A stretch of DNA of 63,777 nucleotides, filler included, from Reclinomonas americana ATCC 50394 (lineage: Eukaryota), in assembly GCA_048213135.1 (NCBI GenBank). It is 15 parts of 15 records of this genome, joined end to end, with 100 filler letters (N's around TTAATTAATTAA, not from the genome) between each part and the next. Parts side by side here need not be neighbours in the genome. Positions count along the whole stretch, not along the records: positions 18,362 to 23,962 come from AFZH01021622.1; positions 24,063 to 28,141 come from AFZH01021623.1; 13 more parts are not named here. One strand, 5' to 3'. Below are positions 10,167 through 37,578 of this stretch, in pieces. The notes beneath the pieces were generated by a model that did not search any database, had not been told where the DNA came from, and worked only from the letters and a program-made list of their open reading frames with translations. A program made the position numbers and the translations under genes. Position 1 is the first letter of the stretch; every line of letters begins with the position of its first letter.

Positions 10167-10206
<40 letters not shown>

Positions 10207-11516
10207 CGTCTATCTCTCTCTCTTTCCGTTCATTCGCAACGCAGTTATCAGATATCGCGCAATCTTGTTTCATGCTTGCATTGTCTCCCCCCTGATACTC
10301 TCAATCAACTGTTGTTTGAGAACCGTCCTATGTCTGCCTCGTTCTTTCTCTCGTATGAAAGCGACTGGTCATATGTGCTGCTGGCAACGCACGCACACGT
10401 GCGCGCGATTCTTACATTCTTCTGCGAAGATCGCTCATTCTCTTCGCGACTCAGCCTCTCATCCCCGTGTCTGATAACAGTCTTCTTTCTCCCCCTCTGT
10501 ATCTCTTGCGTGTCGCCATCGCTTGCGAGTGGTCAATTGTTCTGCAGACAACACGCGCACACGTGCGCGCGATTCTTAGCTTTCTATGTGAAGCACTCTC
10601 GTTCTCTTCGACAGTTTCGCTTCACCACCGTCGCTTTGCTTGCTCGGCATTCTTGCTATGAACGTGGCTTTCTTGTATTTGAGGACTTTGTTTCTCCATG
10701 CATGGCTCACGCTTACGAGTGGTCATCTGTACTGTGGGCAACGCGCGCACACGTGCGCGCGATTGATAACTATTTTTGTAAGAAGCGCTCTCGTTCTCTT
10801 TGCGACGTATCCAACATCTCCCTTTTGCTCGTCAATCTATCTGAGATCATTACGTGCATGTGTTTGAGGACTTTGTTTCTCCATGTGTATCCTTTTTGCG
10901 CAAACATTGCTTGCGAGTGGTCTATTGTTCTGCAGACAACGCGCGCACACGTGCGCGCGATTCTATTCTGTCTCCCTTCCCCTCATCCCCCCTCCCCTTC
11001 TTGCCACAGCTGGCCCCCGCCGCCGCCTTCTTCGGCATCACCGACATTAGCAAGCTCTCCACCGCCGAACTCGCCAAGGCCTCCAAAAACCTCTCCGCCT
11101 TTCTCCGCGCCAGCGGCTACGACGTCAGCTCCGGCGCCGGCAGCAGCAGCAGCGACGAAAGCAGCAGCCGTCGCAGCAAGAAGCACGGCAAGAGCGACAA
11201 GCATCGCAAAGACCGCCACAAGGACGACAAGAAGAAGCGGAAGAAGAGCAAGGACGACGACGACGACAAGAAGAGGAAGAAAAAGAAGAAGTCGAAGAGC
11301 AAGGACAAGAGCAAGGACAAGGATCGACGCAGTGGTCATCGGCGTCGGCATGACAGCAGTAGCAGCAGCGGCGGCGACTCTGACAGCGACCGCCATCGTC
11401 GCTCACGTCGCGCCCGCTCTGCGTCGCCACCACCGTCGGCCGTTGTCGCGCCAGCCATGCCGAGCAGTGCACCACCCGCCGGCCGACATCGGATTACTGC
11501 GGCCGACTTTATGTGA
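615..11516 (+). CDS. GPATCH1: G-patch domain-containing protein 1 (GPATCH1/TOUGH), multi-exon, spans the first gap
   Basis: GT-AG exons at 615-767, 1812-1904, 2899-3084 ([32 protein letters not shown], the family N-terminal signature), 3662-3777 and 3843-3991 (G-patch [19 protein letters not shown]). Later family motifs: [34 protein letters not shown] (~8215), [11 protein letters not shown] (~9480), and a Lys/Ser-rich tail ending ITAADFM*. Some internal exon edges are approximate. Confidence 0.9.
7219..7318. other. Artificial contig linker (44 N + TTAATTAATTAA six-frame stop + 44 N); 14 copies in the window
   Basis: The identical 100-bp spacer occurs at 7219, 13006, 16002, 18262, 23963, 28142, 32994, 36057, 41867, 44729, 46288, 56432, 58932 and 61495. 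True gap sizes are unknown. Confidence 0.99.
10360..10965. repeat. Intronic degenerate repeat, 4 units about 165-200 bp apart, with a palindromic core
   Basis: (G)CG(A/C)..GTGGTC...CAAC(G/A)C(G/A)CGCACACGTGCGCGCGATT recurs near 10386, 10550, 10740 and 10937. The intervening sequence is partly shared between units. Confidence 0.8.
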
Positions 11517-14879: not shown

Positions 14880-15205
14880 GAAGCCCCCTTATGATCAGAA
14901 CCCAACGGAAGGAGAGTTCATCCGAACGCAGAGAGGGGCGCAACCGCTCCGGGATGGCGTTTCCTGCAACCCCCGCTGCGCCGCAGACATAGCGTCGGGA
15001 GAATAGTCTTTTCAAGAACACGAGAAGCGAAGCCAAAATTTGGTATAAATCAATCGTTTCACGCCAATAAGATAGAAAACTGTTCTCCGGCAGATGAACG
15101 GCCGGGAAGGACCTACTTGCAGGCCGGCGGTCCTGGCGGCAAGGATAGGAGCGTGCTCGTCCCAAGGGACTGCGTTCATCCCTTCCTAGCCGAAAGACGC
15201 CGCCG

Positions 15206-16101: not shown

Positions 16102-16538
16102 TACTTGACCTCAACCGCTTGGTTTTGACGTAGCGCCGCAATCATCGTGCGCAACGTATCGTTATTGACGCCTCGAGCAGGCACGGGCGGCCCGGCGTAG
16201 GGAGGAAGGCGGGCAATCCAAGATTCGGAGGAAGTCAAGATGCCTTCGGAGATGGACCGAAGCTGGTTGAGGTACTGACCGGCATCTGGGTTTAAAAAGC
16301 AGGGTTGGAATGCGCTGCTCGCGACATAGCGCTTCGCGCTTTTGTCGTAGGTTGCGTTGTGAGGCGCCCGCTCTTGATAGAGCGTCAGATCCTTCGATGC
16401 CTGCGGAACCGACACATCGAACATCTGGACAATATCTGAGCGGTTAACACCGCCGTCCCAGAAGAGCCGGAACTCGATGAATTCGAGGCGGCGTTCAACA
16501 CCCCATTTCAGCGCGGTCTCGCTTTCCGGCATCGCCAT
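16102..16538 (-). CDS. BrxR/CapW-type wHTH-WYL transcriptional regulator; 3' truncated
   Basis: The N-terminus ERRLEFIEFRLFWDGGVNRSDIVQMFDVSVPQASKDLTLYQERAPHN matches the wHTH of this family. The sequence breaks at the start of the WYL domain. The start codon could be 16532. Confidence 0.85.
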
Positions 16539-16554
16539 TCGCCTCCAAGCGTAG

Positions 16555-16611
16555 ATGCGTATAAAAACTATATGGACATATCAGAGTGATCTGTGTAGTT
16601 AGTATCCTCAT
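16555..16611. promoter_or_regulatory. Imperfect inverted repeat, candidate WYL-regulator operator
   Basis: Arms at 16555-16576 and 16590-16611 (15/22 complementary) with a 13-bp spacer, in an AT-rich divergent intergenic region. Confidence 0.5.
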
Positions 16612-16674
16612 AAATGGTGCCCCGTCAATGGCGAACGAGGCGCAACGGATAGCACTTGAAGGGGAGAAGGGGTT

Positions 16675-18236
16675 ATGTCCGTCTCGGGTCGATCCACCCT
16701 GGTCGTTCAAGGGCGCCTGGCCATGCGGGAGGCTCGTCTGACGGCTGCTCGTGGTGGTCATCAGGGCCTCCAGATCATGTCCTTCGAGCAAGCTGCTGTC
16801 CGGCTTGCCGGCGGCTTCTCTCGGCCCATCGATGACGAAAGCTTGCGTGCAGCCATTCAGGCAGCTCTGCCCGCGACACCGATGGGCGAATTGGAGAGCA
16901 TCAAGGCTCTTCCCGGCATGATCGATGCGGCAGCCGATACACTTCACAAAGCCTGGCGCGCAGGCATCGATCTAGCCGCACACGCAGCCGCTCATCCGCG
17001 TCTCGCCGCCATCGCACGCCTGGAAGCGGCCGTTCGCGACCGGCTTCCATTCGGCATGATGCGGCCCCTCGACATCGTCGCTGCTGCGAACGCCCGCCTT
17101 GGTCATACGTCGGCGGTCCTCGGTCAGATGGAGATCGTCGGGCTGACCGAACTCTCACCGTGCTGGAGGCCGCTGCTCCAAGCGCTGACCGCCCATATCC
17201 CCGTGCGGTGGATGGCCGGCCCGAGGAGCGTTCCCGCGTGGTTGGATGGCACGGGTGTCGTGATCTCGCGCACACCGGTGCAAGCGCCGGGCATCAGCTC
17301 CGTCAGCGCGGCGACTTCTTATCATGAGGCCATCGAGGCGATGCGCTGGGCACGCAGCCTGCTCGCCTCGGGCGTCTCCCCCTCGGAGATCGCGATCGCG
17401 ACCGCCTCGCCCGCCGACTATGACGATCACTTCCTGGCCCTACGCGCCGACGCCAACATTGATCTGCATTTCGTCCATGGCGTCCGAACCGTCACCACTC
17501 GCGAGGGCCAGGCGGCCGCGGCGCTGGCCGACATCGTGGTTCGCGGCTTGTCGCAGTCGCGGCTGCGCCGTCTCGCGGCGCACTGCCGAGACAGCGGGCC
17601 TTTCGAGACCCTGCCCGAAGGCTGGCTACGGGTCCTGCCGACCGATGCACCACTTTCAACACCGGGCGCCTGGAATCGCCTGTTGGCCCGATTGACGCCG
17701 GAAGACTGGCCCGACGGCGCCGACCACGCTCCGGCGCTGCGCACAGCGGTGGAGACCCTGGCAAAAGGATCGGAGGCTGCCAGCGAGATCGGAGCAGCTT
17801 TCCTCACGGGTCGCGCGCTTGCGATCTGGCGCAAGGCGCTGCTCGCCGGACCCGCCGCCTCGATTGACGCGACTCTTGAAACCCTGAAGCAGGACGACGG
17901 GCTGGAGGCGTGCGTATGCGTCGCCTGGATGCCGGCCAGCGCGCTCGCGGCATCTCCCCGTCGTTTCGTGCGCCTCCTTGGGCTCAATTCTTCGCGCTGG
18001 CCGCGCGGGATCGCCGAGGACCGGCTGATCCCGGACCATATCATCCCGACCCCGGTGCTCGATCCGCTCCCGGTCAACCTCGCCGACCGCCGCGATTTCG
18101 AGACGATCCTCGCCACGACGGCCGATACCGTTGTTTTGTCGCGCGCACGGCGTGACAGCGACGGGCGCCTCCTCGGTCGCAGCCCTCTGCTCGCCGGACG
18201 TGGCGACGAAATCTACCTGCGCCGCAATCCGACGCC
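16675..18236 (+). CDS. AddB-like / PD-(D/E)XK nuclease family protein, N-terminal part; truncated
   Basis: Long ORF with a strong RBS and degenerate helicase-like motifs (SEIAIA, VRLLGLNSSRWP, VVLSRARRDSDGR). The nuclease domain itself is not in the window, and the apparent stop codon lies in adaptor sequence. Confidence 0.65.
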
Positions 18237-18261
18237 CTGAGACTGCCAAGGCACACAGGGG
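18237..18261 (+). other. Untrimmed 454 Titanium adaptor B
   Basis: CTGAGACTGCCAAGGCACACAGGGG at the contig end matches the 454 adaptor B reverse complement. Confidence 0.95.
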
Positions 18262-20159: not shown

Positions 20160-20285
20160 GTGCGCGACAGACAAACCCTCCGCACGCCAGAATGGCGAGC
20201 AGAGGGTTCGTGGGCGCAAGACGCAGATCGGCTCGGCGAGCCTCTCGCCCGAGCGGCCTTCGGCCCCCTCGCGCTTACAAGCCGG
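20160..20285. other. Candidate oriT region
   Basis: Several hairpins upstream of the relaxase. The minus strand reads TGTAAGCGCG at 20270-20279, which resembles the MOBQ nic core TAAGTGCG. Confidence 0.35.
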
Positions 20286-20308: not shown

Positions 20309-22264
20309 ATGGGGATAACGCTGGCGCGCCCGGCCATAGGTGGCATCATTTCCTTGACATCGATTCAACGAATGATTCGGGCCATGCAAAAGCAGCTGAC
20401 GTTGGAAGAGGTAGACCGCCTCGAAAAAAGCGTGAAGACCTTCGCCATCTCGGTGGTTGACCGCGTCCTGGATCGCGCTCTGCGAAACGCGCGGCTGGAC
20501 GCGCATTACGCCGCTCAGAGGGCTCTCTCGGGTGGCTCTTTCGCACGCTCGACCGGGCGCTCGGCGCGTCTCTCAAAGGTTATCGTGCGTGCCCTGAAAT
20601 CGCATTATACGCAGATCGCAGTGCCACCTTCGGTGCGGCTGACGATGCCGGGCGGCGGTGTCAGCTTTCATTTCGATCACGTCTCGGTTTCGGCGCGTTC
20701 AATGGCGCTCCAGAAGGGTGAGCGTCGAAACGGCGTCAACAAGTGGCACAAGCAGCCATACGCTCGCGACATTCGCTGGACCTCTCGGGCATCTGCGCAT
20801 CAGATCTATATCGAGCGGCCGTCTGCTCGCGATGAGATCGAAGAGTGGGATGCGGCGCGCGCGCAGCGCTATATCGAAGACGCTGACAAGGTTGCTTTGA
20901 ACGGCGGCAAAGGGAACGATGACTTCTCCTTCGGCAACATCGGCCAAACGCTCCGGGAACGGACCGAGTTCTGGGAACTGGCCTGCAAGGGAGCCGAACG
21001 CGAAAACGGGATCATCCAGCACCGATTCATCGTGCAGTTGCCGAAGGAAGCTTCTGCGCTTGAGCGCAAAGCGATAATGGAAGCTTTCGTCGCGCCGTTT
21101 CAGAAAGAGGGAATGCGCTTCTGGGTGGCTCTTCACGCGCCCACGGCTGACAATGATCCCCGGAACTTTCACGCACACGTTGTGATGTATCATCGCCCGG
21201 CCAGGAAGGTGCTATGGAGCGATCCAGCCTCGGGATCAGACACGCCCGTCAGAATTTGGGATTTCGCCTGTGCGCGGCGCGAAAAGACCAAATGTCGGCG
21301 CTGGAAGGTCATCTTCCCCGAGAGGCAGAAGGTCCCTGACTGGATGCGGGGTCCATTTGTCCTTAAGCAGCGGAGGCGGTTTGCCGACTGCGTCAACGAA
21401 GTGATGAGCGCGGCTGGGAAGGGCCACGTCAAATACGATCCGCGCAGCTACGAAGAGGCTGGAATCAAGGCAACACCGGAGAAAAAGGCGAAATACGCGA
21501 GCAAGGTCGATCGACACGACCGGGATCACACGATCGATGAGCTGGTTGGGGACCTCGCGACCAAGAACCACTCTGAGTCTCGTCGAATACACGAGGGTGA
21601 ATGGGATATCCTCAGCGAGCTCGAGGCACGCCTGGCGGCAGGCTTGCCGGTCTCTGTGGCGTCGCTGCATGAGGCTACTCGGATCCCTATGACGGTCACC
21701 GGGTCTAACATCTCCGGACAAGTTGGCCCGGAGGCGCGATCGGCCGCCGAGACCTATGCCAAAGCGCGTCTCGACCAGCTGCACTCGCGAGAGCAGGCTG
21801 ACCTTGAGATCGGAATTCTGGACACGGCCGCATCGGCTACCGCGCCGGATGCCGTCAGGCGTCATCGAGCCAGACTGAAGGCTCAGTTGTCCCAGGGCTC
21901 GCCGCAGGCGCGTGAGAGGACGCGAACCGCTCATTCGGAAGTGGCTGATGATGCAGAGGCCGAAGCGCTCCATGATGCCGCTATGCGCGAACGCGAGACA
22001 AGGCGGCGGCAGTTCGACAGGGAGCTCGCGACTCGCGAAGCGGAAACCCGCTTTGCGCTCGATCGCCTGCTCATGTCCCTGCGCCGGGAGCAGCGACAGC
22101 GTAATCGGCAAAATGCCTCTATTGCCCCAATGCAGGTGCGCAGCTCCCCGGAGCAACGGGCAGCATCTCGTGCTGAAAGCCCATCTGCCGCAGCCGTGTC
22201 AGCAGAGCCGATTCGGCGCCCCACCACAGCTCCTGCGCCGCGTGGAAAGGGGTATGGCGACTAG
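20309..22264 (+). CDS. MobA/MobL (MOBQ) family relaxase
   Basis: Motifs QHRFIVQLPKE, VALHAPTADNDPRNFHAHVVM (HUH) and YDPRSYEEAGI, with a helical C-terminus. The start may be 20372 or 20384. Confidence 0.85.
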   Translation: MGITLARPAIGGIISLTSIQRMIRAMQKQLTLEEVDRLEKSVKTFAISVVDRVLDRALRNARLDAHYAAQRALSGGSFARSTGRSARLSKVIVRALKSHYTQIAVPPSVRLTMPGGGVSFHFDHVSVSARSMALQKGERRNGVNKWHKQPYARDIRWTSRASAHQIYIERPSARDEIEEWDAARAQRYIEDADKVALNGGKGNDDFSFGNIGQTLRERTEFWELACKGAERENGIIQHRFIVQLPKEASALERKAIMEAFVAPFQKEGMRFWVALHAPTADNDPRNFHAHVVMYHRPARKVLWSDPASGSDTPVRIWDFACARREKTKCRRWKVIFPERQKVPDWMRGPFVLKQRRRFADCVNEVMSAAGKGHVKYDPRSYEEAGIKATPEKKAKYASKVDRHDRDHTIDELVGDLATKNHSESRRIHEGEWDILSELEARLAAGLPVSVASLHEATRIPMTVTGSNISGQVGPEARSAAETYAKARLDQLHSREQADLEIGILDTAASATAPDAVRRHRARLKAQLSQGSPQARERTRTAHSEVADDAEAEALHDAAMRERETRRRQFDRELATREAETRFALDRLLMSLRREQRQRNRQNASIAPMQVRSSPEQRAASRAESPSAAAVSAEPIRRPTTAPAPRGKGYGD

Positions 22265-22488
22265 CCATTGGGCAGAGGCCCGGTAACTGGGCGAGAACAG
22301 GCTTCACTCGCGTCGGCAGAAAATCGGCATAAACACGGGCATACGGTGCAAAGGTCAACGTTTGCATCGCGAACAGCCATCGAAGCCCGGAGGGGCCAGA
22401 ACAGGGGAAGCGGAACCTCGCCGAGGTCAACCCCCGAGAATTGAGCTGAGAGCCGTTCCGGGAAACGCAAGACGGAACGGAATTTCCC

Positions 22489-22941
22489 ATGAAGACGAAG
22501 ACCGAGCAGGCGACGGGCGACGATCAGGCGCGCCCGACGCAGAGCGAACTCGCCCGCTACCAGCGGGCTTATCAAGTGAGCAGCCGACACAGCGAGATCT
22601 ACCCGAGGTGGCAAGCCGCGATGGCGCATGCCGTCCTGCTCGAGCATGACGGCGACCGGATCTACCCGGATCAGGGCCACTTGAATGGCCGCCAGCTTGC
22701 CGAAGGCGCCCGGGCGACGGCGCGCGCCTTCGCGCTACTGATCGCAGAATCTCCGGCCCGCTCGGAGCAGGAATTGTCCAACAAGATCAGCATCTACGAG
22801 ATGATGGTCTTCCTCGATGGCGAGCGCGAACGCTCGCGCACGCCCTACATGGTCGAGATCGCCATGCATGCCGATGCCTCGGCGCTCGGGATCGACCTCC
22901 GGAAGGAGCCGATCGCTAACGGCCCCGGCGGCGTGCAGTGA
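22489..22941 (+). CDS. Hypothetical protein (150 aa) with a PARSxxxLxxK motif
   Basis: Starts MKTKT like the 24683 gene and contains PARSEQELSNKI; 10 nt from the next gene. Confidence 0.75.
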   Translation: MKTKTEQATGDDQARPTQSELARYQRAYQVSSRHSEIYPRWQAAMAHAVLLEHDGDRIYPDQGHLNGRQLAEGARATARAFALLIAESPARSEQELSNKISIYEMMVFLDGERERSRTPYMVEIAMHADASALGIDLRKEPIANGPGGVQ

Positions 22942-22951
22942 GGGATCGGTC

Positions 22952-23962
22952 ATGAGTTACATCGTTGTCGATCTCGAGACGACCGGGCTCGATCCGAAGT
23001 GGAATCTGGCGCTGCAGGCTGCGATGATTCATGCCGATGGCGATCTCAATCCGATCGACGAGCTGTCAATGCGGTGCCGGCTGCCCGCACATATCGTGCC
23101 CTCGCCAAAGGCGCTGCTGGTGACAGGAATCCGGCCTGAACAGTTGGAGCAAGCGCCGCTGTCGAGCACAGAGTTGCTCGCCACCATCGCCAGGATGCTG
23201 TCGCACTGGGCGCCCGCGACGGTGATCGGCTACAACACGCTCGCCTTTGACGAGGAAGTCTTGCGACACAGCTTCTTCTCGCACCTGCTTCCACCCTATG
23301 CGACGCAGGCGGCGGGCATGCGTCGTGCCGATCTGCTTACGATGGCGCGGGCCGTAGCGCTGCTGGAGTCCTCGGCCATCACCGTGCCGATCAATCCCGC
23401 CGGCAAGCCGAGCTTCCGGCTCGGCGACATTTGCCGCGCCAACAACATCACCCTGTCGGAGGATGACGCGCATGACGCACTGGCGGATGCCCGCGCCACA
23501 CTCGCCCTGTTTCGGCATCTCAAAACTGTGGCGCCGAGCACCATCGCGATCATGCTCGAGAACAGCCACAAGAGCGGCCCGATCGGGCGGCTCGCCAGCG
23601 GCGAGCTTCTTCTGCTGGGTGGCCAGCAGAAGCTGACGCCGGTGGTTGGCCTCACCGCCAACCCGACTGTCGCGACATCCTGGGCCGCGATCGATCTCAC
23701 CATCGACCCAACGGACTATATCGATCTCGGTTACGACGAGGTCGCGAAGCTTCTGTCGGCTCGAGGCCCCCGACCGGTCCGGACGGTCAAGATCAATGCG
23801 CAGCCGCTGCTGGTGCCCTTCGCGTCGGGCTCCCACGCCCTCGCCGAGGACCAGCGCGATGAGGCGCTCTACAACGAGCGCGCAGACCGGATCCGCCGGC
23901 ATGAGGGTTTCCGCCGGCATGTGGCTACTGCGCTGGCGAACCGCTTCGCCGATCGCGAAGCG
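22952..23962 (+). CDS. Exonuclease I (SbcB)-like DEDDh 3'-5' exonuclease; 3' truncated
   Basis: Motifs VVDLETTG, PSPKALLVTGI, GYNTLAFDEEVLR, KPSFRL and AHDALADARAT. Confidence 0.88.
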
Positions 23963-24063
23963 NNNNNNNNNNNNNNNNNNNNNNNNNNNNNNNNNNNNNN
24001 NNNNNNTTAATTAATTAANNNNNNNNNNNNNNNNNNNNNNNNNNNNNNNNNNNNNNNNNNNNC

Positions 24064-24537
24064 CTGGCGGAATGGCCGCTGGAGCGCTTCGACCTCGTCG
24101 CCGGGCTGGCGCTGCGCGGCGGCGTCCCCGACTTCGCCGATCGCGAGCTCAATCTCTGGGCAGCCTTCGCCAGGGCTGCGCCGGACCTCGATAAGCTCGC
24201 GAGGCGGGCCCGGACGATGTTCGGCATCAGCGATCGACTGATCACTCTCGCCGCGACTGGACCCGATAATGCCTCCGAGCTCATGGTCGCCGCCGAAGGG
24301 GCCCGCATCGCGGCCTACCTCGCCGCGGCCCAGGTGATGATCTGGCCGCCGCGCGGCGCGGCCGGGCTGGCGGCGAAGAACGAGATCGTCGCGCTGATCA
24401 ACCAGCGCGGCGAATCCGGCGATCCGGTGGAGATGCAGGCCGCCATCCGCCACGTCGCCGCGGAATCCGCCTGGCTGAAGTCGTTGTCGTCCGAGATGCG
24501 CGAGCGGCTCAAATTCGAGTGGAGTGAGATCGTCTGA
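24064..24537 (+). CDS. Hypothetical protein, 5' truncated; paralogue of 24683-25630
   Basis: The frame is open from the contig edge. AAFARAAPDLDKLARRARTM and IWPPRGAAGLAAK align with EAFFYAPPDFGELLDRARAL and LWPARSEGDLAAK in the next gene. Confidence 0.75.
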   Translation: MAEWPLERFDLVAGLALRGGVPDFADRELNLWAAFARAAPDLDKLARRARTMFGISDRLITLAATGPDNASELMVAAEGARIAAYLAAAQVMIWPPRGAAGLAAKNEIVALINQRGESGDPVEMQAAIRHVAAESAWLKSLSSEMRERLKFEWSEIV

Positions 24538-24562
24538 CGAGCCCGTCCGGGCACAGGACAGG

Positions 24563-24591
24563 AGGCAGCGCCGGCACCGGCGCTGCCTTTT
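24563..24591 (+). terminator. Intrinsic terminator-like hairpin
   Basis: AGGCAGCGCCG-GCAC-CGGCGCTGCCT followed by TTT. Confidence 0.65.
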
Positions 24592-24682
24592 CGATTCAAG
24601 TCCGGCCCGGGAGGCCGAAGCAGAGAGGGAGAAAAAGCGACTGCCACGAGCAGATCACCCCCGAAAATCAGGAATTCAGACC

Positions 24683-25630
24683 ATGAAGACCAAGACCTCC
24701 CGCGCCACGACGAAGCTCAGCACGATCATGCGCGACACCGTCCACCATCCCGTGACCGACGATCTCGCCGGTCTCGATCGTCTCGTTCCGGAGGCTCCAA
24801 GCGAATTCGAGCAGTTCGCGCTCTTCCATGCGCAGCTGCCAGCCCTGCTCGAGCTGCGCGGCCGCGGCCAGGTTCACTCTGAGCAGGTGCAGCGCCTCAT
24901 CAAGCTCCTTGCCAAGGAGCCGGACCTCGTCGGAACCTGGATAGACGTCGCCAACGCGATGACGGTGCTGACGAACGCATCCCACCTCGCGCTAATGCTG
25001 CTGCCCGCCCGCACCGATGATGACAGCTGGACGCTAGGCGATTTGGGGCGCCACCTGCTCAATCGCGCACGAGCCCATGGCGATCAGCGCGATATCGATC
25101 TGGCACGCCGCGTCGTCGGGCGCCTGCCCGCCACGCCGCGGCTCAATCTGAGCCGTGAGCCCGAGGCCGTCCAGGACATGATCAACGCGATGGTCCGCCG
25201 GGCCGCCGCACTCCACCCGGCTCCGGACGCGTTCCATGAAGTTGGGCGCCCCGGCATCCATGTGCTCGAACAGGCGGATAGTCTCGAGGCCTTCTTCTAC
25301 GCGCCGCCGGATTTCGGCGAACTGCTTGATCGGGCCAGGGCGCTGCTCCGCAAGATCGACGGCCTCCGGCTTCATCATCTTCCGCCAGTCCGCGAGCAGC
25401 CCGCATACGAGGGCATGCTCATACTCGCTTACGCAAAGCTGCTGCGCATCGCGCTCTGGCCGGCCCGGAGCGAAGGCGACCTCGCAGCAAAGATCGCGGC
25501 CAGCGACCTCGTTCGCTCGCGCGACGGCGACGCCGACCGCTACCGGGCGCTCTTCGAGATCGCTCTCGGACAGGGCGAGACCATCGCGCGGCAGAGCGAC
25601 CGGTTCATCAATCTCGATCGCGCGGACTGA
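24683..25630 (+). CDS. Hypothetical protein (315 aa)
   Basis: AGGA RBS before ATGAAGACCAAGACC, GC3-rich codons and a WPARSEGDLAAK motif. Confidence 0.78.
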   Translation: MKTKTSRATTKLSTIMRDTVHHPVTDDLAGLDRLVPEAPSEFEQFALFHAQLPALLELRGRGQVHSEQVQRLIKLLAKEPDLVGTWIDVANAMTVLTNASHLALMLLPARTDDDSWTLGDLGRHLLNRARAHGDQRDIDLARRVVGRLPATPRLNLSREPEAVQDMINAMVRRAAALHPAPDAFHEVGRPGIHVLEQADSLEAFFYAPPDFGELLDRARALLRKIDGLRLHHLPPVREQPAYEGMLILAYAKLLRIALWPARSEGDLAAKIAASDLVRSRDGDADRYRALFEIALGQGETIARQSDRFINLDRAD

Positions 25631-25665
25631 CAGACGAAGGACCAGCTCAACCTGATGCCTAAGAG

Positions 25666-25691
25666 GGCGCGTCCATCCGGACGCGCCTTTT
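25666..25691 (+). terminator. Intrinsic terminator-like hairpin
   Basis: GGCGCGTCC-ATCC-GGACGCGCC followed by TTTT. Confidence 0.65.
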
Positions 25692-25767
25692 CCGTTTCAG
25701 GAGAGGGGTGGAAGAGCTGACCAGCTACCCCCGAAAGCCAATCCAGGCCGGGAAGCAGAAACAGGAC

Positions 25768-26919
25768 ATGACGACAAGGAAGAGCAAGCGGCAGGAGGCC
25801 TACTCCGTCCTCGGCGACACCAAGCCGGTCGCAATCGACGTGACCAACGGCACCTCGACATCATCCGCGGAATCCGAAAGCCTTGCCTCCTCGGCCCAAG
25901 ACCGCACGCACGTCGCGATCTTCGACCGCGACGCACTCCATAGGCAGCTACGACTCGGCGGCGTGCACGACAGCTACGACAGCGCCGCTGTTCCATTGTC
26001 GACGTCGCAGGAAGAGCAGGCCCGGCTCGAGCGCTTGCGCACGCTCTACTTCGAGAATCCGGAGCGGACGCTCCTCATCGGGACGATTGAGATGCATGCA
26101 GCTCTCGCTGCGCTCCGCGACGAATGCCCGGCCTTCCTGCCAGTGATCGATCTCGTCGACCGCGCCGTCCATCTGTCGAGGATGGCGGGAACAGGCCTTG
26201 CGATACCGCCGCTGCTCCTCGTCGGTGCGCCGGGCACGGGAAAGACTCATTTCAGCAAGCGATTGGCGGCAGCGCTCGGCGCCGAGCAGCACGCCTTCAG
26301 CTGTGCGACGAATTCGGATGCTCAAGCGCTGGTAATCGGGCACCCGGTCTCCTGGAAAGGAGCTCGCATGGGCGTGGTCACCGAGGCCCTGCTGGGTGGC
26401 GAAATCGCCAATCCGCTGATCGTGCTCGACGAGCTCGACAAGTTCGTCACGCATGTGACGGAGCAGCCCTACAACACGCTTCTCGCTCTCCTCGAGCCTG
26501 AAAACGCGTCAGCGCTGGTCGATGAATATCTGCGAGTACCCTTCGACGTCTCTCATGTGTTGATCCTCGCCACGGCTAACGATCTCAACGCGCTACCCGA
26601 GTTTATTCGCGATCGCCTGTTGATCATCCGCGTCCTCGCGCCGAGCGGCTTGGGGCTGCTGGCCGTCACCAGACGCATCGTCCAGACGATCATTGCCGCG
26701 CATCGCGACGTCTTCGACCAACCCGACGACGTGGTCATCATGCGACTGGCAAGAGCCCATCCGCGCCGTGTCCGACGCGTTGCGACGCTCGCTCTCGGTC
26801 ATGCCGCCGCCGCCAGCCGGACGCGCATCCTCGTTAACGACATCGATGCCGCTGAACGGATCGCTGCAGACGCCCCGACGGCCATGCCGATCGGCTTTCT
26901 CCAGCATCATCACGCTTGA
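25768..26919 (+). CDS. Stand-alone Lon-type AAA+ ATPase with no protease domain
   Basis: Walker A GAPGTGKT, Walker B LIVLDELDK, the Lon-like segment LLALLEPE...DEYLRVPFDVSHVLILATAN, and a C-terminal PIGF. Confidence 0.85.
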   Translation: MTTRKSKRQEAYSVLGDTKPVAIDVTNGTSTSSAESESLASSAQDRTHVAIFDRDALHRQLRLGGVHDSYDSAAVPLSTSQEEQARLERLRTLYFENPERTLLIGTIEMHAALAALRDECPAFLPVIDLVDRAVHLSRMAGTGLAIPPLLLVGAPGTGKTHFSKRLAAALGAEQHAFSCATNSDAQALVIGHPVSWKGARMGVVTEALLGGEIANPLIVLDELDKFVTHVTEQPYNTLLALLEPENASALVDEYLRVPFDVSHVLILATANDLNALPEFIRDRLLIIRVLAPSGLGLLAVTRRIVQTIIAAHRDVFDQPDDVVIMRLARAHPRRVRRVATLALGHAAAASRTRILVNDIDAAERIAADAPTAMPIGFLQHHHA

Positions 26920-26962: not shown

Positions 26963-27805
26963 ATGACCACGAATACGCCTGCCGGCAGCGCGGGGGCCAG
27001 CCTTCCCCGTATCCAGCCCATTGGCAGCAGCGCAGCCGTCACGCGCTACCTGAGAACCGATTGGCCCAGGGTGGGCGGGTCAAACTTTCGTCCTCTTACG
27101 CACGACGCCTTCCTGAAGCCGTGCTTCGCCCTGCGCTATCAGCCGGGATTTCTGGTCAGCGTCTATCTGGCAGCATGCGGCAACGCGCCTGGCGATCTGA
27201 AAGGGACCACGGGTTTGCTTGGTGTCGCGCGCCGCCTCCAACTGCCTCTGTACAAGGTGTCTGCGACCGAATGTGCCGATCCCAGGATCAGGTTGAAGGA
27301 ACTCAATCGGGATCGCTATGCCGCCAACGTCATCGACCCGGACGGTGCCTTCCTTCAGGAAGAGGGATTCCAGCAGTGGACTTTTCAGCAATTCCTGCCG
27401 GATCGCGAGCCGTTGCCGGGATCGCCCGTCATCGACCAGGGGCGCTTCTTCACGGTGCGTCGGCCGCACGACATGGACAAGGATGCCTTCGACAAGCTGC
27501 TGCATGTCCGGTTGAAGGCGGCCAGCTTTAATGCGTTTCTGCAATCCCGCGCAGGAAAGGCACACTGCGCAACGCTCGGTCTCAAGCCCGAGGAGCAGAT
27601 GCGCTACACGCACTATCGCTTCGCCGAGACGCCTCGCATCGATCCTGCCCAAGAGCTTTATATCTTCAGGCCCGCTGGGGAGGATTCCGATCGGCTTCTC
27701 GGGATCATCGAAAAGCTGATCTACGACTGGGTGACCGGGGCGATCCCGCGCGAGCCGGCCTGGTGGCGCGATCCGGGCCAGCAGGCCCGGCGACGCCTCG
27801 CATAA
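26963..27805 (+). CDS. Hypothetical protein, possibly a divergent GIY-YIG (T5orf172-like) nuclease
   Basis: The pattern VSVYLAAC...LYKVSAT...PRIRLKELN recalls VY...YKIGxT...RxxEL. The ORF is solid but the family call is weak. Confidence 0.55.
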   Translation: MTTNTPAGSAGASLPRIQPIGSSAAVTRYLRTDWPRVGGSNFRPLTHDAFLKPCFALRYQPGFLVSVYLAACGNAPGDLKGTTGLLGVARRLQLPLYKVSATECADPRIRLKELNRDRYAANVIDPDGAFLQEEGFQQWTFQQFLPDREPLPGSPVIDQGRFFTVRRPHDMDKDAFDKLLHVRLKAASFNAFLQSRAGKAHCATLGLKPEEQMRYTHYRFAETPRIDPAQELYIFRPAGEDSDRLLGIIEKLIYDWVTGAIPREPAWWRDPGQQARRRLA

Positions 27806-27827: not shown

Positions 27828-28432
27828 TCAGGAAGCTGCCCAGTCGGTCACCATCAGGCCCGGCACGCGCTCAAACTCACGTCGGTTGCCAGTGACGAGG
27901 ACCGCGCCACGCCGACGTGCCTGTGCCGCGATCAGCGTGTCATAAGCTCCGATCGGGGTTCCCGCTGCTTCGAGCGCGGCGCGGATGTCGCCGGCTTCGC
28001 CGGCGTCACCATCGTCGAGCGGGACAATCTCGAAGCCCTCGGAAAGGAATGCGTCGAGAACCCTCCCGGAGGATTCGCGGCGGTTGCTCTTCGCGATGCC
28101 ATATCTGAGTTCGAAGATCACGATCGGCGAAATGAGGAGCCNNNNNNNNNNNNNNNNNNNNNNNNNNNNNNNNNNNNNNNNNNNNTTAATTAATTAANNN
28201 NNNNNNNNNNNNNNNNNNNNNNNNNNNNNNNNNNNNNNNNNATGCGTCGAGAACCCTTCCCGGAGGATTCGCGGCGGTTGCTCTTCGCGATGCCATATCT
28301 GAGTTCGAAGATCACGATCGGCGAAATGAGGAGCCGGGTTCCTGCGGTGAGTTCCTGCTGAAGCCTAAGATCGACAGCGGGAACCCGGCCATTGAGCGCG
28401 TGCACGATGACATTGGTATCGAGCAGAAACAT
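27828..28432 (-). CDS. vapC: VapC PIN-domain toxin (split by a gap whose flanks overlap)
   Basis: Motifs LLDTN, ELRYG, GTPIGAYDTLIAAQAR and VTGNRREFERVPGL. 28049-28141 duplicates 28242-28335 with a 1-bp indel, so this is a single gene. Confidence 0.93.
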
Positions 28433-28789: not shown

Positions 28790-30475
28790 TCATCTCGAAC
28801 CTCCAAACGCGACCTTCTGAGCCTCGACCCAATCCGATGACAGCTTCGGGAACAGTGGCGGAGGGGCGACAACCTTTCGTCTCTCTGACCCGCCCGAGCT
28901 AAGGATGCACGGCGCGGTCGGCCAGAGGGGCTGTCCAGGCCAATGTCCCACAGCGGCGAGGACGCGCTCGGCGGTTCCAGGGATAAAGCTCCACGCGGTC
29001 TGGGCAGCAATTTCGACCAACGTGACCGCTGTTCTGATGACGACGGCGGTTCGCACGGGATCATTGGCATGGGTCGACCAGGGCGCCTCCCTGGCAAGGT
29101 ACGCATTCCCGAGCCGCCAGATCTGCCGCACCTCGTCGGCTGCCTTGCGAACGGATAGGTCCTTGTGATGCCCTCGAAGCGAAGTGAGATGTGCCTCGAT
29201 TTGGCGAGACAGCTCGCGTTCGGGCGCGTCGATGGCGCCAATTTCCGGAACGATGCCGCCATATCGACTCTCCACGAACTTGAGAGTTCGGCTTACGAAG
29301 TTTCCGAAAGTGTCTGCCAGGTCGTGGTTTATATCGGCTGCAAACCTCTCGAAGGTGAAGTCCGTGTCGCTGCTCTCAGGCGCATTGGACGCCAGCCACC
29401 AGCGCCAGTAGTCGGCCGGCAGCAAGGCCAGAGCCTGATCGAGGAAGATACCGCGCCGCAGGCTGGTCGAGAACTTGCCACCGTCATAGGTCAGCCAGTT
29501 CACGCCCTTGATCACGTCGACGGTCTTCCACGGCTCGCGCGAGCCGAGCAGCGTGCAAGGAAAGCTCACGGCGTGGAATGGAACGTTGTCCTTGCCAAGA
29601 AATTGCCGGTAGTCGACGTCGTGGGCGTCCCACCACCATCGACGCCAATCTCTCCCGTCGGCGGCGTCACACCATTCCTGCGTCGCTGCGATGTAGGCAA
29701 TCGGCGCATCGAACCAGACATAGAAAACCTTGCCCTCGAAGCCCGGCTTCGGCACTGGCACTCCCCAGTCGAGATCGCGGGTGATGCAGCGGTCCTGGAT
29801 GCCCTCGTTCAACCATTTCCGGGCGATGGACGTCACGAGCGGTGGCCAGCCCGGGCGCGACGCGATCCAGGTCTCCAGCTCGCCGACCAGCGCTGACTGT
29901 CGCAAGAAAAGATGCCGGCTCGAGCGGATCTCCAGTCTCTCGCTGCCTGACAGGAGCGAGCGCGCGTCGATCAGGTCGACGGGGTCGAGCGGGCGCGTAC
30001 AATTCTCGCACTGGTCGCCTCGCGCTCGCTCGAAGCGACAATGGGGACAGGTGCCGATGATGTAGCGGTCAGGCAGAAAGCGCCCGTCTTCGGGAGAATA
30101 GACCTGATCGAGGACGCGCTCCTCGATGAAGCCATTGTCTTCGAGGCAGCGGAAAAAGTGCTGGGTCAACGCACGGTTATGCGAGGAAGACGAACGGCCG
30201 AAATGATCGAACGAGAGATCGAGCCGGCGATAGATCGCCGCTTGGATCTCGTGTTGCTCCCGGCAGAAATCCGCGACCTGCTGGCCAGCTTCCGCTGCTG
30301 CAATTTCGGCTGGCGTACCATGTTCGTCGGTTGCGCAGATAAACAGGACGTCGTCGCCAATCTGCCGCCGGAGGCGCGCGTGAATGTCAGCCGGCAGCAG
30401 GGAGCCTGCGAAGTTGCCGAGATGCTTGATGCCATTGATGTAAGGCAGTGCGCTTGTGATGAGTGCCTTCGCCAT
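28790..30475 (-). CDS. metG: Methionine--tRNA ligase (MetRS2-like), probably an accessory copy
   Basis: ITSALPYINGIKHLGN (HIGH motif), TDEHG, zinc knuckle CPHC...GDQCENC, FYVWFDAPIAY and KFSTS (KMSKS motif); no C-terminal tRNA-binding domain. Confidence 0.96.
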   Translation of the reverse strand: MAKALITSALPYINGIKHLGNFAGSLLPADIHARLRRQIGDDVLFICATDEHGTPAEIAAAEAGQQVADFCREQHEIQAAIYRRLDLSFDHFGRSSSSHNRALTQHFFRCLEDNGFIEERVLDQVYSPEDGRFLPDRYIIGTCPHCRFERARGDQCENCTRPLDPVDLIDARSLLSGSERLEIRSSRHLFLRQSALVGELETWIASRPGWPPLVTSIARKWLNEGIQDRCITRDLDWGVPVPKPGFEGKVFYVWFDAPIAYIAATQEWCDAADGRDWRRWWWDAHDVDYRQFLGKDNVPFHAVSFPCTLLGSREPWKTVDVIKGVNWLTYDGGKFSTSLRRGIFLDQALALLPADYWRWWLASNAPESSDTDFTFERFAADINHDLADTFGNFVSRTLKFVESRYGGIVPEIGAIDAPERELSRQIEAHLTSLRGHHKDLSVRKAADEVRQIWRLGNAYLAREAPWSTHANDPVRTAVVIRTAVTLVEIAAQTAWSFIPGTAERVLAAVGHWPGQPLWPTAPCILSSGGSERRKVVAPPPLFPKLSSDWVEAQKVAFGGSR

Positions 30476-30527
30476 GATGCCCTCCCTGGGGTCATTTCAC
30501 GGGTCAAGCGCCAGACCTTCGATCAAC

Positions 30528-30557
30528 AAAAAAGCCCTCCGCAGATCCGGAGGGCTT
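30528..30557 (-). terminator. Intrinsic terminator in the metG leader (attenuator)
   Basis: The minus strand reads AAGCCCTCCG-GATCTG-CGGAGGGCTT-TTTT, about 50 nt upstream of the metG start. Confidence 0.85.
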
Positions 30558-30594
30558 GGGTCCAGCGCTTACACGCGCGGCGATAGGCACGCGC

Positions 30595-30663
30595 TCAACC
30601 CCTCCGGCCAATCTCCTGCTGGTCGGGCCTGCGCATTCGCGTGGCGGGGAAGGACGAAAACAT
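30595..30663 (-). CDS. Putative metG leader peptide MFSSFPATRMRRPDQQEIGRRG
   Basis: GGAG RBS 6 nt upstream and one internal Met codon (30634-30636). Its 3' end contains the strand complementary to the terminator 5' arm. Confidence 0.6.
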   Translation of the reverse strand: MFSSFPATRMRRPDQQEIGRRG

Positions 30664-33973: not shown

Positions 33974-35947
33974 TCAGTCCTGGTCGTCGAAGCTGGCGGG
34001 GGGAGCCTTGGCGATCGCCTCTAGAATGCGATCGATATCAATCGGGATCACCAGCCGGTCGATGTTCTCTTTCAGCATCGCCAAGGCCTGCCCCTTATTA
34101 TAGACGCGGAAGGTCGACTTGCGGCGTGGGCTCATGTGACCGACGATCTCCTCCGCATGTTCCTGCGGGACCTTCGCGCGATGGAGCAGCGTGCAGACAC
34201 TGTGCCTGAAGGCATGGAAATCGAGCTCGAGTGGAAAGCCCGCTGCGATCTTGAAGTCTGAAAAGCGCCGACCGGGAGCCGCGCCCCACGAGTTCTGCTG
34301 GTTCGCGGCGGTGATCTCCGGAAACAGCCGCTCGGCGCCATCGCGACCCTCGACGCGCGCGGCCAGGAAACCAAGGCGCAACAGATTATCGTGCAGTGGC
34401 ACGAACCGCCGGCTCGGCTTGTCCCGGCGCTTGTCGCCCTTCAATTTCAGCGTCTTGTCGGTCTTGAGGTCGAAGTACCAGATACCGGTCTCTTCATCGC
34501 GCACGACGTGCCGGACACGCAGCTGGAAGATCTCCTCGCGCCGCATCCCGTGATGGGCTGCGATGATGACGCCCCACCAGAGCGGCGTCCGCGGAATGCA
34601 GGTGCCGATCGTCAGCCGATCGCGCTCCGAGCGACACCCGACAAAAAACGGCAGAGAGAACAGCTTTTCTTGCTGTTCCAGCTCCCACATGTCGCGGGCG
34701 CCCTTTTCGCGAAAGAGCGAACCTTCTTCCTCATCATCGTTCGTATCGACGGGCAGAAACAGGCCCTTCGTTGGTGTCTCCGCACCCGCGGGGACGGCGC
34801 CGTTGTCGATGCCGTATTCCCAGAGCAGGTTGAACAGGGAGAGATGCCGGTTGATGGTTTTTCCCTTCAGCTTCGGGATCTTCTCATCGTAGGGCTTGCC
34901 CTGGTCGAGGGCCATTGCCAGTTCAATCACATGCTTGAAGGAGCTTCCGTCCTTCAACATCCGTCCGAACTCGCCCCGGATGTACTGGGACGGCAGCTTC
35001 TGCAGCTGCCTGATCAGGTTGGAGATATGCGGCCGGGTAATCTGGTCGAGGGCGACGTCGCCGCAGAACTCGATCAGCAGCTTGTAGGTGCTCTTGCCCT
35101 GGATGGCCTGGGCATTGTCGATCCGCTTCTTCTCCACGGCATCGCTCAAGAAGGTCGACCAGATCTGGGACAGCCGAAGCCCTTTCCAGCTTGGTACCAC
35201 CACCGTGGGCGTAGCTGCATCGGTAACCGGACCGTCGGCCGTCTCGTCTCGGGCCTCGATCGCGCCGGTCCCCGCACGCTCTTGTCCGATCACCCAGGAG
35301 AGCGGCATCCGGTCCTGCACGCGCTCGCCGGGCTTCGCCGACCGCAGGCTCGCGTGGATCTGGGCGGGCGTCAGCGGGCAGTCCGCCGGCGGCGTGACGT
35401 CTCCCTCCCAGGAGATCGTGACCGAAGTGTCCTCACTCGAGGGCAGCGTGGCATACATGTCGGCAAAGCCTTCGGCGGCATGAATGCGGGCGCGGGTCAG
35501 CGCGTTCGTCACCAGCGCGGTCCGGATCTCGTCAGCTGACAGGTCGGCCGGGATTATTCCCTCGCGCATCGCCTGGTGGAGAAAGGCCGAAAGGCCCATC
35601 ATCTTGGCGCGCTGGTCCGTCGCATTTTCGAGAGGGTGGGCGGGTTGGCCTGCTGCGACGCGTCCGAGGACCGCGTCCTCATGCCTCGTCCAGGTGGCAC
35701 TTGCGATGCTGGCCTCCGCCAGAGAGCGGACTGCCTCTCGCGTCATCGCCGGGTTCGCACGGATCGTCATGAAGAGGGTCTCCGTCGCCTGCCACAGGGC
35801 TGATGCCATGCGGCGGGCTTCTCCGGGGGTAGCCCGGCCCAGGGACCTGACGATCTCGGTGGCACCGATTCGCGCTTTCAGATCCTGGGGGATTTTACGC
35901 CGAAACAGGGTAGTCGCCCCGCGACGCCGAGAACAAACGGTGATCAT
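33974..35947 (-). CDS. Tyrosine recombinase/integrase with an N-terminal DUF6538-like domain
   Basis: N-terminal FRRKIPQDL...EIVRSLG; catalytic GMRREEI, FHAFRH, VGH and a downstream Tyr (RVYNK). Confidence 0.9.
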   Translation of the reverse strand: MITVCSRRRGATTLFRRKIPQDLKARIGATEIVRSLGRATPGEARRMASALWQATETLFMTIRANPAMTREAVRSLAEASIASATWTRHEDAVLGRVAAGQPAHPLENATDQRAKMMGLSAFLHQAMREGIIPADLSADEIRTALVTNALTRARIHAAEGFADMYATLPSSEDTSVTISWEGDVTPPADCPLTPAQIHASLRSAKPGERVQDRMPLSWVIGQERAGTGAIEARDETADGPVTDAATPTVVVPSWKGLRLSQIWSTFLSDAVEKKRIDNAQAIQGKSTYKLLIEFCGDVALDQITRPHISNLIRQLQKLPSQYIRGEFGRMLKDGSSFKHVIELAMALDQGKPYDEKIPKLKGKTINRHLSLFNLLWEYGIDNGAVPAGAETPTKGLFLPVDTNDDEEEGSLFREKGARDMWELEQQEKLFSLPFFVGCRSERDRLTIGTCIPRTPLWWGVIIAAHHGMRREEIFQLRVRHVVRDEETGIWYFDLKTDKTLKLKGDKRRDKPSRRFVPLHDNLLRLGFLAARVEGRDGAERLFPEITAANQQNSWGAAPGRRFSDFKIAAGFPLELDFHAFRHSVCTLLHRAKVPQEHAEEIVGHMSPRRKSTFRVYNKGQALAMLKENIDRLVIPIDIDRILEAIAKAPPASFDDQD

Positions 35948-36265: not shown

Positions 36266-36380
36266 CTCCCCTTCCTCCCTCCCCTTCCTCTCTCCCCTCC
36301 CTCTCCCTCCCCTTCCTCTCTCCCCTTACTCCCTCTCCTCCACCTATCCCTCCTGCCCTTCTCTCACTTGCTCGCCGCAG

Positions 36381-37578
36381 CCGACCTGCTGTCCCCGGAG
36401 GAACCCGATCGCATCTTCACCGACTTGGTGAAGCTGGACGAGGGCTCGAGCGGTGCCGTGTATCGCGGTGTCGACAGTCGCGACGGAACGGTGGTGGCCA
36501 TCAAGATCATTCAGATTCGTGCCGACACCAAGCTGGAGTCGCTGGAGAACGAAATTGCCATTCTGCAGACATGCGTGCACCCCAACATTGTGAAGTACAT
36601 TGGATCGTACTCGAAGGGCTCGGATCTGTGGGTGCGTATAAGCGCTGCTGCTCCTCACTGTCGCTTTGATGGCTGACTCAATCCTCGAAACCCCCCACAC
36701 GCACACACAGCTGGTGATGGAGTTTATGCAAGGCGGCAAGCTGACCGACGCGCTGCTTCCTCGGCGGTTCAATGAGGCGGAGATTGCCACTGTGTGCTTG
36801 CATTCGTTGCGCGGACTGGGCTACTTGCACGAGGCACAGCTGGTCCATCGTGATATCAAGAGTGACAATGTGTTGCTGGGTGCGAGGGGAGAGATCAAAG
36901 TTGGTGAGTTTGAATTGGGAAAGGGCAAAGTTTGTGTGATTTATTTTCCGTCTCAGGGACGAGAGAGTCTCTCTGTGCATCGCACTGTTACTTACTCTTC
37001 TCTCGACGCTCGCAGCGGACTTTGGTTTCTGCGCGGAGCTCACGGAGGGTGCTCAGAAGCGCCGTTCAGTGGTCGGCACACCGTACTGGATGGCGCCGGA
37101 GGTGATTCGTGGCATCGACTACGACACAAAAGTGGACATTTGGAGCATGGGCATTATGGCGCTGGAGTTGGCCGAGGGCGAGCCACCGCTGTTGGACTTG
37201 CCGCCGCTGCGAGTTTCGTGGGCGGTGGAGAGTGCAGTGTTTAGCAACTTCCCTTTCTGCGTGTGCACACATCGTTGCTCATCGGCGTATCGATCCTCCC
37301 TTGTGTGCTATATCCCCCTTCCTCCTCCCTTCCTCCCCCGTTCCCTTGTCCACTCATCCCTTCTTTTTTTTCGGCAGGCCCTCTTCGTGATCGCCACACA
37401 ACCACCCCCAACGCTGAAGGATGCCAGTCGCTGGACGCCCGAGTTCCGCGACTTTTTGGCTCGCTGCCTGGCCAAGCTGCCACAGCAACGCGCGACGGCT
37501 GCGGAGCTGCTGGCGCATCCGTTCATTGCCGGTGCATCGGAGGACACGAGCTTTATCCGCGATCTCATCCCTCGCTAG
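36381..37578 (+). CDS. PAK/STE20 family Ser/Thr kinase; 5' partial, 4 exons
   Basis: Exons at 36381-36631, 36711-36903, 37016-37212 and 37378-37578; motifs VAIK, HRDIKSDNVLL, ADFGFCA, VGTPYWMAPE and AEGEPP. Confidence 0.93.

Follow-up and report, generated by a model that had tools for sequence, protein, structure and literature searches.

The window analysed here is a 63,777-nucleotide (nt) stretch presented under the Reclinomonas americana ATCC 50394 assembly GCA_048213135.1, which comprises 108 Mb in 16,441 contigs, and it is a chain of short contigs with N44-TTAATTAATTAA-N44 spacers between them. The part from 13106 to 36056 is bacterial, and the ends of the window carry intron-rich eukaryotic genes. 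Within the bacterial part, three copies of a structured leader precede the genes starting at 22489, 24683 and 25768; contig C6155 carries copy 1 and contig C6156 the other two, with one such spacer (23963-24062) between. The genes behind the copies are core genes of a tRNA-integrated Bosea island; the core encodes hyp150 and exonuclease I, then between two and five helical proteins that are paralogues, and lastly a Lon-type ATPase and hyp280, and an integrase follows. We found that the leader family is real, uncatalogued and seen in one genus only; it most likely acts on mRNA and is partly the product of duplication.

The sequence features first noted in the three copies were confirmed with small corrections. 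The motif ACCCCCGA(G/A)A occurs at 22430, 24657 and 25727, all on the plus strand, and its three matches compare with 0.13 ± 0.37 in 100 shuffles, none of which reached three. The inner hairpins are ACCTC/GAGGT (22415), CTGC/GCAG (24641) and AGCTG/CAGCT (25715), the last with a 2-nt loop as written, so that only 4 bp are possible. Copies 1 and 2 share GCCCGG..GGCC..CAG, the GCCCGG motif of copy 1 being off by one base in its spacing, as well as the start ATGAAGAC(G/C)AAGACC. Terminator-like stems stand ahead of copies 2 and 3, with the TTCA tail of copy 3 spaced one base differently, and copy 1 has no such stem. The copies were assigned to three classes of the family, copy 1 to class A, copy 2 to class D and copy 3, the most degenerate of the three, to class F. 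Folding of the single copies was no better than that of shuffles (z -0.64, -0.40 and -0.11). Because the three hairpins belong to distinct paralogous leader classes, their differences alone are not covariation, and the covariation evidence was taken from relatives. When 727 sites were scored with a matrix made without the window copies, copy 2 came first, copy 1 came second and copy 3 had a weak score. Three further pattern matches in the same genome were not leaders, and a site at 14931-14975 (GAGAGGGG...ACCCCCG, between two host genes), motif-like by eye, fell outside the matrix top ten.

The hyp315 alignment (64 homologues) retrieved 15 genome loci, 13 of them titled Bosea, and 11 metagenome loci. 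In these relatives, nearly all genes that have an intergenic gap of their own are preceded by the layout. An internal leader begins with a stem of 10-15 bp (S1) and a tail of 3-4 U, continues through (C)GAUUC or UCAUG to a purine tract GGAGG(G/U)GA, and then presents the hairpin P2, the anchor (A/G)CCC (RCCC), 18-27 A-rich nt and the ATG. With starts curated by hand, the leaders form eight classes with 129 distinct 48-nt cores; one H-class start without the anchor was dropped. Class A leaders, which stand ahead of the first gene, lack S1 and carry a near-fixed GGAACCC-N6-GGGAACCCC, and class G, ahead of hyp280, has no P2 yet keeps RCCCC. The coupled junctions hyp150-exonuclease I and hyp315b-Lon are without a leader, and a leader does stand ahead of Lon genes that have their own gap, several of these leaders being of the hyp315b type, like copy 3. 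The anchor is a purine followed by CC in all leaders but one, and the distance to it from the end of S1 is mostly 37-47 nt, with ~25 nt more where an extra hairpin is inserted. Intergenic gaps are mostly 115-135 nt, mean column identity across classes is 55%, and conservation within the tail is highest at the AU 7-8 nt past S1. At the complete-genome loci, 19 of the 21 genes selected with protein profiles had the full layout, as against 0 of 133 flanking control genes, whose starts were chosen automatically, a test that is only partly independent since the loci were first located by the covariance model of classes B and C; RCCC lies at -17 to -28 in all 21 module genes and in 18 of the 133 flanking genes. 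GANTC follows S1 in 41 of 60 B-D leaders and in 0 of 18 class E leaders.

The GATTC at window 24593-24597, like that in classes B-D, is a CcrM GANTC site too, and of 43 B/D leaders, 14 have a second GANTC 8-9 nt past the anchor; control by methylation state following transfer is a side possibility. The antisense of the tRNA-Met T arm, a common integration site (GAGAGGG...GAACCCCCGA; L112 14086-14162), resembles the window copies and class A, probably by chance. We rejected a conserved upstream open reading frame, as start codons, although present in the B/C loops and past the anchor, lie in all frames and are absent from class E, and also a promoter between the stop codon and S1, the spacing of which is not conserved.

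The evidence for structure comes from classes B and C. Among 34 B/C-type leaders, 94% of the P2 cells, which are not independent events, are paired and five of the seven pairs show two-sided changes; none of 500 shuffles was as high, and slid controls gave 22-51%. S1 in the same classes is 91% paired, with two-sided change in six of 11 pairs. Internal non-Watson-Crick oppositions are G-T in 35 cases and A-C in two, against 317:316 in shuffles. In 39 distinct B/C-type hairpins, found with a pattern that itself fixed some letters, four internal pair positions show G-U and not one shows A-C. The predicted upstream pairing of CCC ranges from 0.32 to 0.90 by class. Covariation of the hairpin, together with the tolerance of G-U and not of A-C in two paralogous classes, points to a folded mRNA, as judged by sequence comparison. 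The suggestion in the original prediction of an unannotated structured RNA motif is therefore supported by the two-sided changes (two paralogous classes, one alignment), by wobbles favouring the plus strand and by the lack of an Rfam match: Rfam 15 gave 0 matches at the gathering threshold in the window, and chance-level matches in the window and three loci lay off the leaders. A likeness to cobalamin and glycine riboswitches was dropped, there being no Rfam match.

The B/C covariance model gave 56 matches in 26 sources; of the 15 that were weak, 12 coincided with anchors curated for class D, E or G. In five Bosea genomes the model gave 39 matches, in tandem and ~1.1 kb apart, and within the genus it matched 28 of 111 genomes, often with several islands each. 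B. eneae CCUG 43111 and B. massiliensis CCUG 43117 are among the strains that carry the island. Module genes were present at 20 of 20 fetched loci and in 10 of 11 further Bosea stretches around matches; the eleventh, with an E 0.25 match, had none. An all-class model built on sequence only found no match in 16 loci with distant hyp280 homologues.

Table 1. Features around the three leader copies in the window.
Feature	Coordinates	Strand	Remarks
Putative origin of transfer (oriT), inverted repeats around TTCGTGGGCGC 5' of the relaxase	20170..20260		Similar motif ahead of the relaxase in 2/3 relatives checked
MobA/MobL (MOBQ-like) relaxase	20309..22264	+	PF03389 E 3e-15; NF041496 below cut-off
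Copy 1, class A leader of first gene	22385..22488	+	Relatives: GGAACCC-N6-GGGAACCCC, sequence conserved without covariation
Copy 1, purine tract	22403..22410		
Copy 1, GGAA-CCTC/GAGG hairpin	22412..22427		
Copy 1, ACCCCCGAGAA	22430..22440		
Copy 1, long hairpin	22453..22480	+	Directly 5' of ATG
hyp150, small protein, possible distant hyp315 paralogue	22489..22941	+	hhalign to hyp315 E 0.067; 27 clusters at 50% identity
Exonuclease I (SbcB-like), truncated by contig end	22952..23962	+	NF008746 E 7e-48 below cut-off; PADLOC RTasSbcB E 1e-60
Artificial contig spacer	23963..24062		Most relatives: two paralogous genes with own leaders here
par343-type paralogue, 3' end	24064..24537	+	tblastn 60-67% to relatives' par343b
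S1 stem ahead of copy 2	24560..24597	+	14 bp including G-U, short U run, then GATTC; covariation of the equivalent stem in classes B/C
Copy 2, class D leader, with A-rich spacer	24603..24682	+	Top of 727 CCC sites, matrix made without window copies
Copy 2, optional hairpin	24603..24617		
Copy 2, purine tract	24623..24637		
Copy 2, hairpin	24639..24656		
Copy 2, ACCCCCGAAA	24657..24666		
hyp315, all-helical, expanded paralogue family	24683..25630	+	64 homologues, mostly Bosea where named; pLDDT 89
S1 stem (hyp315b-type) and copy 3	25662..25767	+	S1 25662-25691; weak matrix score, rank 4-6
Copy 3, purine tract	25700..25714		
Copy 3, AGCT/AGCT hairpin	25715..25726		
Copy 3, ACCCCCGAAA	25727..25736		
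Lon-type AAA ATPase without protease domain	25768..26919	+	PF00004; TIGR00763 covers residues 149-289 only
hyp280, last module gene	26963..27805	+	Class G leader in many relatives, not in window
DUF6538 tyrosine integrase, separate contig	33974..35947	-	PF20172 and PF00589

The genes behind the copies had been called cargo; they are instead the conserved core of the island, since the DNA 5' of hyp150 varies. The common order in relatives is hyp150, exonuclease I, par343a, par343b, hyp315a, hyp315b, Lon and hyp280, and exonuclease I begins 10 nt after hyp150 in the window. At the gap between C6155 and C6156 the relatives have ~2 kb more genes. The module is followed by a convergent tyrosine integrase or a serine recombinase, and by a tRNA for Met, Leu, Arg, Glu or Gln, which was seen in 25 of 42 stretches scanned, including seven of nine regions from near-complete genomes. 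The DUF6538 integrase of the window probably belongs to the same island; an integrase 77% identical to it in another island (L027) comes after the same module and abuts tRNA-Gln. A relaxase lies 5' of the module, on the same strand, in eight of the nine loci where one was seen. Of 401 genomes sampled across the order, two have the hyp315 family, and one of these is the centre genome; hyp280 homologues occur in 42 of 401 genomes from the family. Searches with hyp150 in Pfam, NCBIfam, PHROG and PADLOC, and profile searches with hyp280, gave no family match. Fold searches with hyp315 and hyp280 gave nothing clear, the leads for hyp280 being weak (GIY-YIG nucleases HIGLE and Slx1, Z 2.4-3.1), and the Atlas gave only unnamed clusters of 313, 343 and 152 amino acids (aa). 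A plasmid blastn with 22200-26000 had no match, and hyp315 was not confirmed in any viral contig. The class A pattern had 10 matches in viral contigs, which we took as chance, the flanks being unrelated and without module genes. The literature covered, mostly non-subscription papers, contained no description of the island or the motif.

Several further observations concern the gene content of the islands. The best PADLOC match of the exonuclease is the reverse transcriptase-associated SbcB (E 1e-60), and no reverse transcriptase was noticed; given also the ATPase and the GIY-YIG-like hyp280, a role of the module in defence or anti-defence is possible. Between hyp280 and hyp400, at window 28790-30600, lie a vapBC pair and a gene for methionyl-tRNA synthetase, the leader of which bears a hairpin; they are true cargo, and both are missing at the equivalent place in L027. 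An RraA-like gene, whose match is below NCBIfam cut-offs, lies 3' of hyp280 in seven islands (L012 14234-14761, L014 14283-14810, L017 14266-14793 and others), in some with its own hairpin leader; RraA inhibits RNase E, and its family also includes aldolases. In L010, L012-L014, L017 and L030 (~6600-9800 in L012), a reverse-strand two-gene insert and one or two small XRE-type regulators stand between par343b and hyp315a, and the hyp315a leader at these loci bears an extra hairpin and a GACGG/CCGTC stem. At window 16104-18240, the start of a regulator, which we take to be WYL/BrxR-like and which has no Pfam or NCBIfam match, diverges from a family-less 521-aa gene, a possible defence locus.

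Bosea-like bacterial contigs are present within a eukaryote assembly. Near-identical DNA was found in sludge, soil and biofilm metagenomes from four studies, the pieces having mostly 0-1 differences, and the best metagenome holder was excluded as independent evidence as it may share its origin with the source sample; because of these metagenomes, we regard the contigs as those of a co-sequenced bacterium and not as eukaryotic genes. The vapC gene overlaps between adjoining contigs (28083-28141 and 28245-28340), so the contig order is probably that of the original scaffold. Another contig of the assembly (G000:C8291, L005) looks bacterial by eye too, with a chaperonin gene end and transporter genes. 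Window 2900-11516, 36380-37580 and 38500-53600 appear by eye to be eukaryotic genes with long purine/pyrimidine introns, presumably G-patch-like, STE20-like kinase and WD40-like repeat genes. Module copies under Leifsonia and Stutzerimonas metagenome-assembled genome labels (L011; protein P0031) are likely mis-binned Bosea contigs.

We see about an even chance that the repeats are gene-boundary cassettes that segment and stabilise the RNA of one polycistronic transcript of the island core module, every functional step of which we infer from sequence. Transcription would start at a single sigma70 promoter 5' of hyp150, and S1 would act both as a leaky U-poor terminator and as a 3' barrier for the upstream cistron. 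An RNase E-type endonuclease would cut at the AU step 7-8 nt after S1, and the Shine-Dalgarno (SD)-like purine tract and P2, closed by pairing of the G-run with CCC, would shield the new 5' end by a 30S road-block, the hairpin or both. The protected end would adjoin a weak A-rich start, and each gene would yield a separately stabilised mRNA. Most copies would have arisen through tandem duplication of a gene plus its leader, the Lon-type gene inheriting a leader when the preceding gene was lost.

Segmentation and stabilisation is the best reading because of the promoter counts, the type of S1, the AU step, the purine tract, the RNase J homologue and the cip-cel precedent. The tract binds the anti-SD sequence with -8 to -12 kcal/mol in classes B-H, against -3 to -5 at the normal SD position; for the 16S tail we assumed a motif, which was then located in five genomes. 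A full-length RNase J homologue, slightly under the cut-off, is present in five of five Bosea genomes. Sigma70-like sites, scored against the Methylosinus consensus (PMC12403871), occur in six of 23 class A leaders (0.8 expected) and one of 114 internal leaders (~4 expected), a motif count that fits one promoter ahead of the first gene. According to the same paper, U-poor structured 3' ends are the commonest type in the family studied, which fits S1. According to three other reports, Rhodobacter RNase E cuts at AU (PMC6238624), ribosomes on SD-like sequences shield downstream RNA from RNase J (PMC5737220), and the segments of the cip-cel mRNA are set by stem-loops on either side of the cut sites (PMC10311766).

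Several results weigh against this reading. Covariation was counted only in classes B and C, which fall in the assembly gap of the window; the B/C covariance model found none of the three window copies, class A showed no covariation in the alignment of relatives, class D was compared by eye, and the layout test shares loci with that model. The outer G-run/CCC stem is 85% paired and never covaries, and 12 of the 39 hairpins have C-A as their terminal P2 pair. The minus strand folds better in 22 of 22 class D and 19 of 22 class A leaders, and also in class H. The RCCCC kept in class G without P2 means that CCC may be read as sequence. The SD-like tract is followed by an ATG or GTG in all 16 class C leaders and in 12 of the 18 of class B. 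In addition, only 18 of the 76 B-E leaders, with no class C leader among them, have an SD order that exceeds 95% of shuffles of matched composition, and start-region accessibility, or ribosome-binding-site insulation, shows no gain over a shuffled leader.

The original prediction named simple duplication and decay among the outcomes that would undo it, and duplication is part of the explanation. Par343a and par343b are ~42% identical, hyp315a and hyp315b ~36%, and par343b and hyp315b 28% over 120 aa; since the helical genes are paralogues (hyp150 only weakly), duplication of gene plus leader in tandem accounts for most copies. Compensatory change and reuse ahead of unrelated genes argue for selection on the structure and not for decay alone. 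That the leaders are a neutral relic, alike only through duplication of genes with their terminators and spacers, is very unlikely; these paralogue identities and the hyp315b-type S1 of copy 3 speak for it, and the compensatory changes and invariant anchor at 30-40% protein identity, and the related leaders ahead of the unrelated hyp280 and Lon genes, speak against it. Of 25 loci, 13 have the gene order A-B-C-D-E-Lon-G, and the remaining ones differ by losses, by duplications or, in three, by hyp315a after Lon. Four of five high-identity block ends lie in leader windows, which make up 11% of the module, in only three sequence pairs, and homologous exchange at the leaders is plausible. A site-specific cassette recombination site of the attC type, which had also been proposed, is hardly probable: copy number varies, the block ends favour leaders and the minus strand is loosely like the tRNA-Met T arm, but the order is mostly collinear with deviations that are mostly losses and duplications, the integrases differ among islands while leaders persist, only three pairs were compared and intergenic DNA diverges faster anyway. 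No RYYYAAC/GTTRRRY boxes were seen in the aligned leaders, and no NCBIfam IntI model matched, a DUF6538 tyrosine integrase or serine recombinase being present instead.

The alternative that each unit is its own transcription unit, with S1 terminating and the purine tract and RCCC forming a promoter for an alternative sigma factor or activator, we judge unlikely. It would explain the terminator-like stem directly 5' of each copy at near-constant spacing, the invariance of RCCC as sequence and, in classes B-D, a GGAA-like pentamer 15-18 nt 5' of GT(C/A/G)A that by eye is loosely like an extracytoplasmic function (ECF) promoter; the spacing nevertheless varies between classes, A, E and G have no ECF-like match, the module has no sigma factor, and the G-U polarity is unexpected for duplex DNA. 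Somewhat more doubtful is a protein site, in which P2 with its 3' A and CCC would be bound, possibly by the helical proteins of the island, to repress or activate translation of all module genes together. The invariant A-CCC, a G-U pair that persists in 31 of the 39 hairpins, the fixed place just outside the start region and the expansion of helical proteins of no known fold together with the leaders suggest recognition, whereas profile searches gave no RNA-binding family, and loop and stem sequences vary widely by class. A promoter formed on single-stranded DNA (ssDNA) of the transferred strand, as in Frpo/ssi, was among the first suggestions and is now highly improbable. Like those systems, the leaders are repeated hairpins ahead of genes on a relaxase-bearing element, and the minus strand folds slightly better in classes A and D. 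By the usual rule, an upstream relaxase on the same strand, as in eight of the nine loci, would make the transferred strand the template. Against the proposal, 113 of 114 internal leaders have no -10/-35, no such hexamers are rebuilt in the stems, the stems are short and DNA folding gives only -2 to -6 kcal/mol, the wobble polarity of B/C is that of the coding strand and would turn into A-C mismatches on the presumed transferred strand, and the module would enter late. An RNase P substrate, a short stem and then RCC mimicking the acceptor end of tRNA and cut 5' of P2, is barely credible: a 7-bp stem does stand directly before ACC in B/C and the purine-CC anchor is nearly general, but the fourth base is C and not A, the GGGG run of class E pairs with CCC (P 0.90), and A and G are without this geometry.

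A further reading would make the leaders a portable island-specific RNA module, in which a displaced SD tract, caged by the conserved CCC across the hairpin and opened by the 30S subunit or by an island protein of new fold, switches on stability or translation of all genes of an uncharacterised nuclease-ATPase system at once, for example after transfer or phage infection; we judge this idea unlikely. If segmentation and stabilisation is true, the family offers a compact natural series (>120 variants in eight classes) on mRNA segmentation and stabilisation in a GC-rich alphaproteobacterium and bears on whether SD-like 5' stabilisers work outside Firmicutes, with a reach limited by the narrow range of one genus. 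The analysis also flags an undescribed island module that combines exonuclease I with a Lon-type ATPase, a protein that may be GIY-YIG-like and an expanded family of helical proteins.

The leader family belongs to none of the known systems that it resembles. EGeRS1 of pLS20-family plasmids (PMC8708921) likewise consists of repeated structured sequences ahead of mobile-element genes, without a housekeeping promoter, that block read-through; its branched copies are 400-750 bp long, 62-95% identical and attached to establishment genes, whereas the leaders are ~100 nt long, diverged below the >60% identity between copies of EGeRS1, and attached to island core genes. The promoter-early stem-loop (PeSL) cassettes of T4-type phages (PMC4122927) are composite stem-loops at gene boundaries and possible exchange points, but each carries a sigma70 early promoter and they swap unrelated genes, while the leaders have no such promoter and a mostly fixed order. 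In cluster K mycobacteriophages (PMC11373665), start-associated sequences (SAS) and their extended form (ESAS) are conserved motifs of unclear function ahead of many genes, the only case found in the literature covered on start-associated sequences; SAS lie 3-9 bp from the start, ESAS have a SigA-like promoter, and neither is like the leaders in sequence. The STAB-SD or SD-like stabilisers that block RNase J (PMC5737220 and its reference 13) share with the leaders a strong SD-like tract 40-50 nt 5' of the real start, and the host has an RNase J homologue; they are described in Firmicutes, however, and the leader tract is predicted to be partly paired to CCC, is repeated, and owes its strength largely to base composition. 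The leaders most likely work like the stem-loops of selective RNA processing and stabilisation (SRPS), by analogy with Ruminiclostridium cellulolyticum cip-cel (PMC10311766) and Rhodobacter puf (PMC6238624), where intergenic GC-rich stem-loops of one operon are cut 3' of the stem and both new ends are protected. Conserved intergenic stem-loops in a co-oriented operon are found here as well, but the SRPS stems are unrelated in sequence, whereas the leader family is one repeated cassette with an invariant RCCC and an SD-like tract, in which processing would take place.

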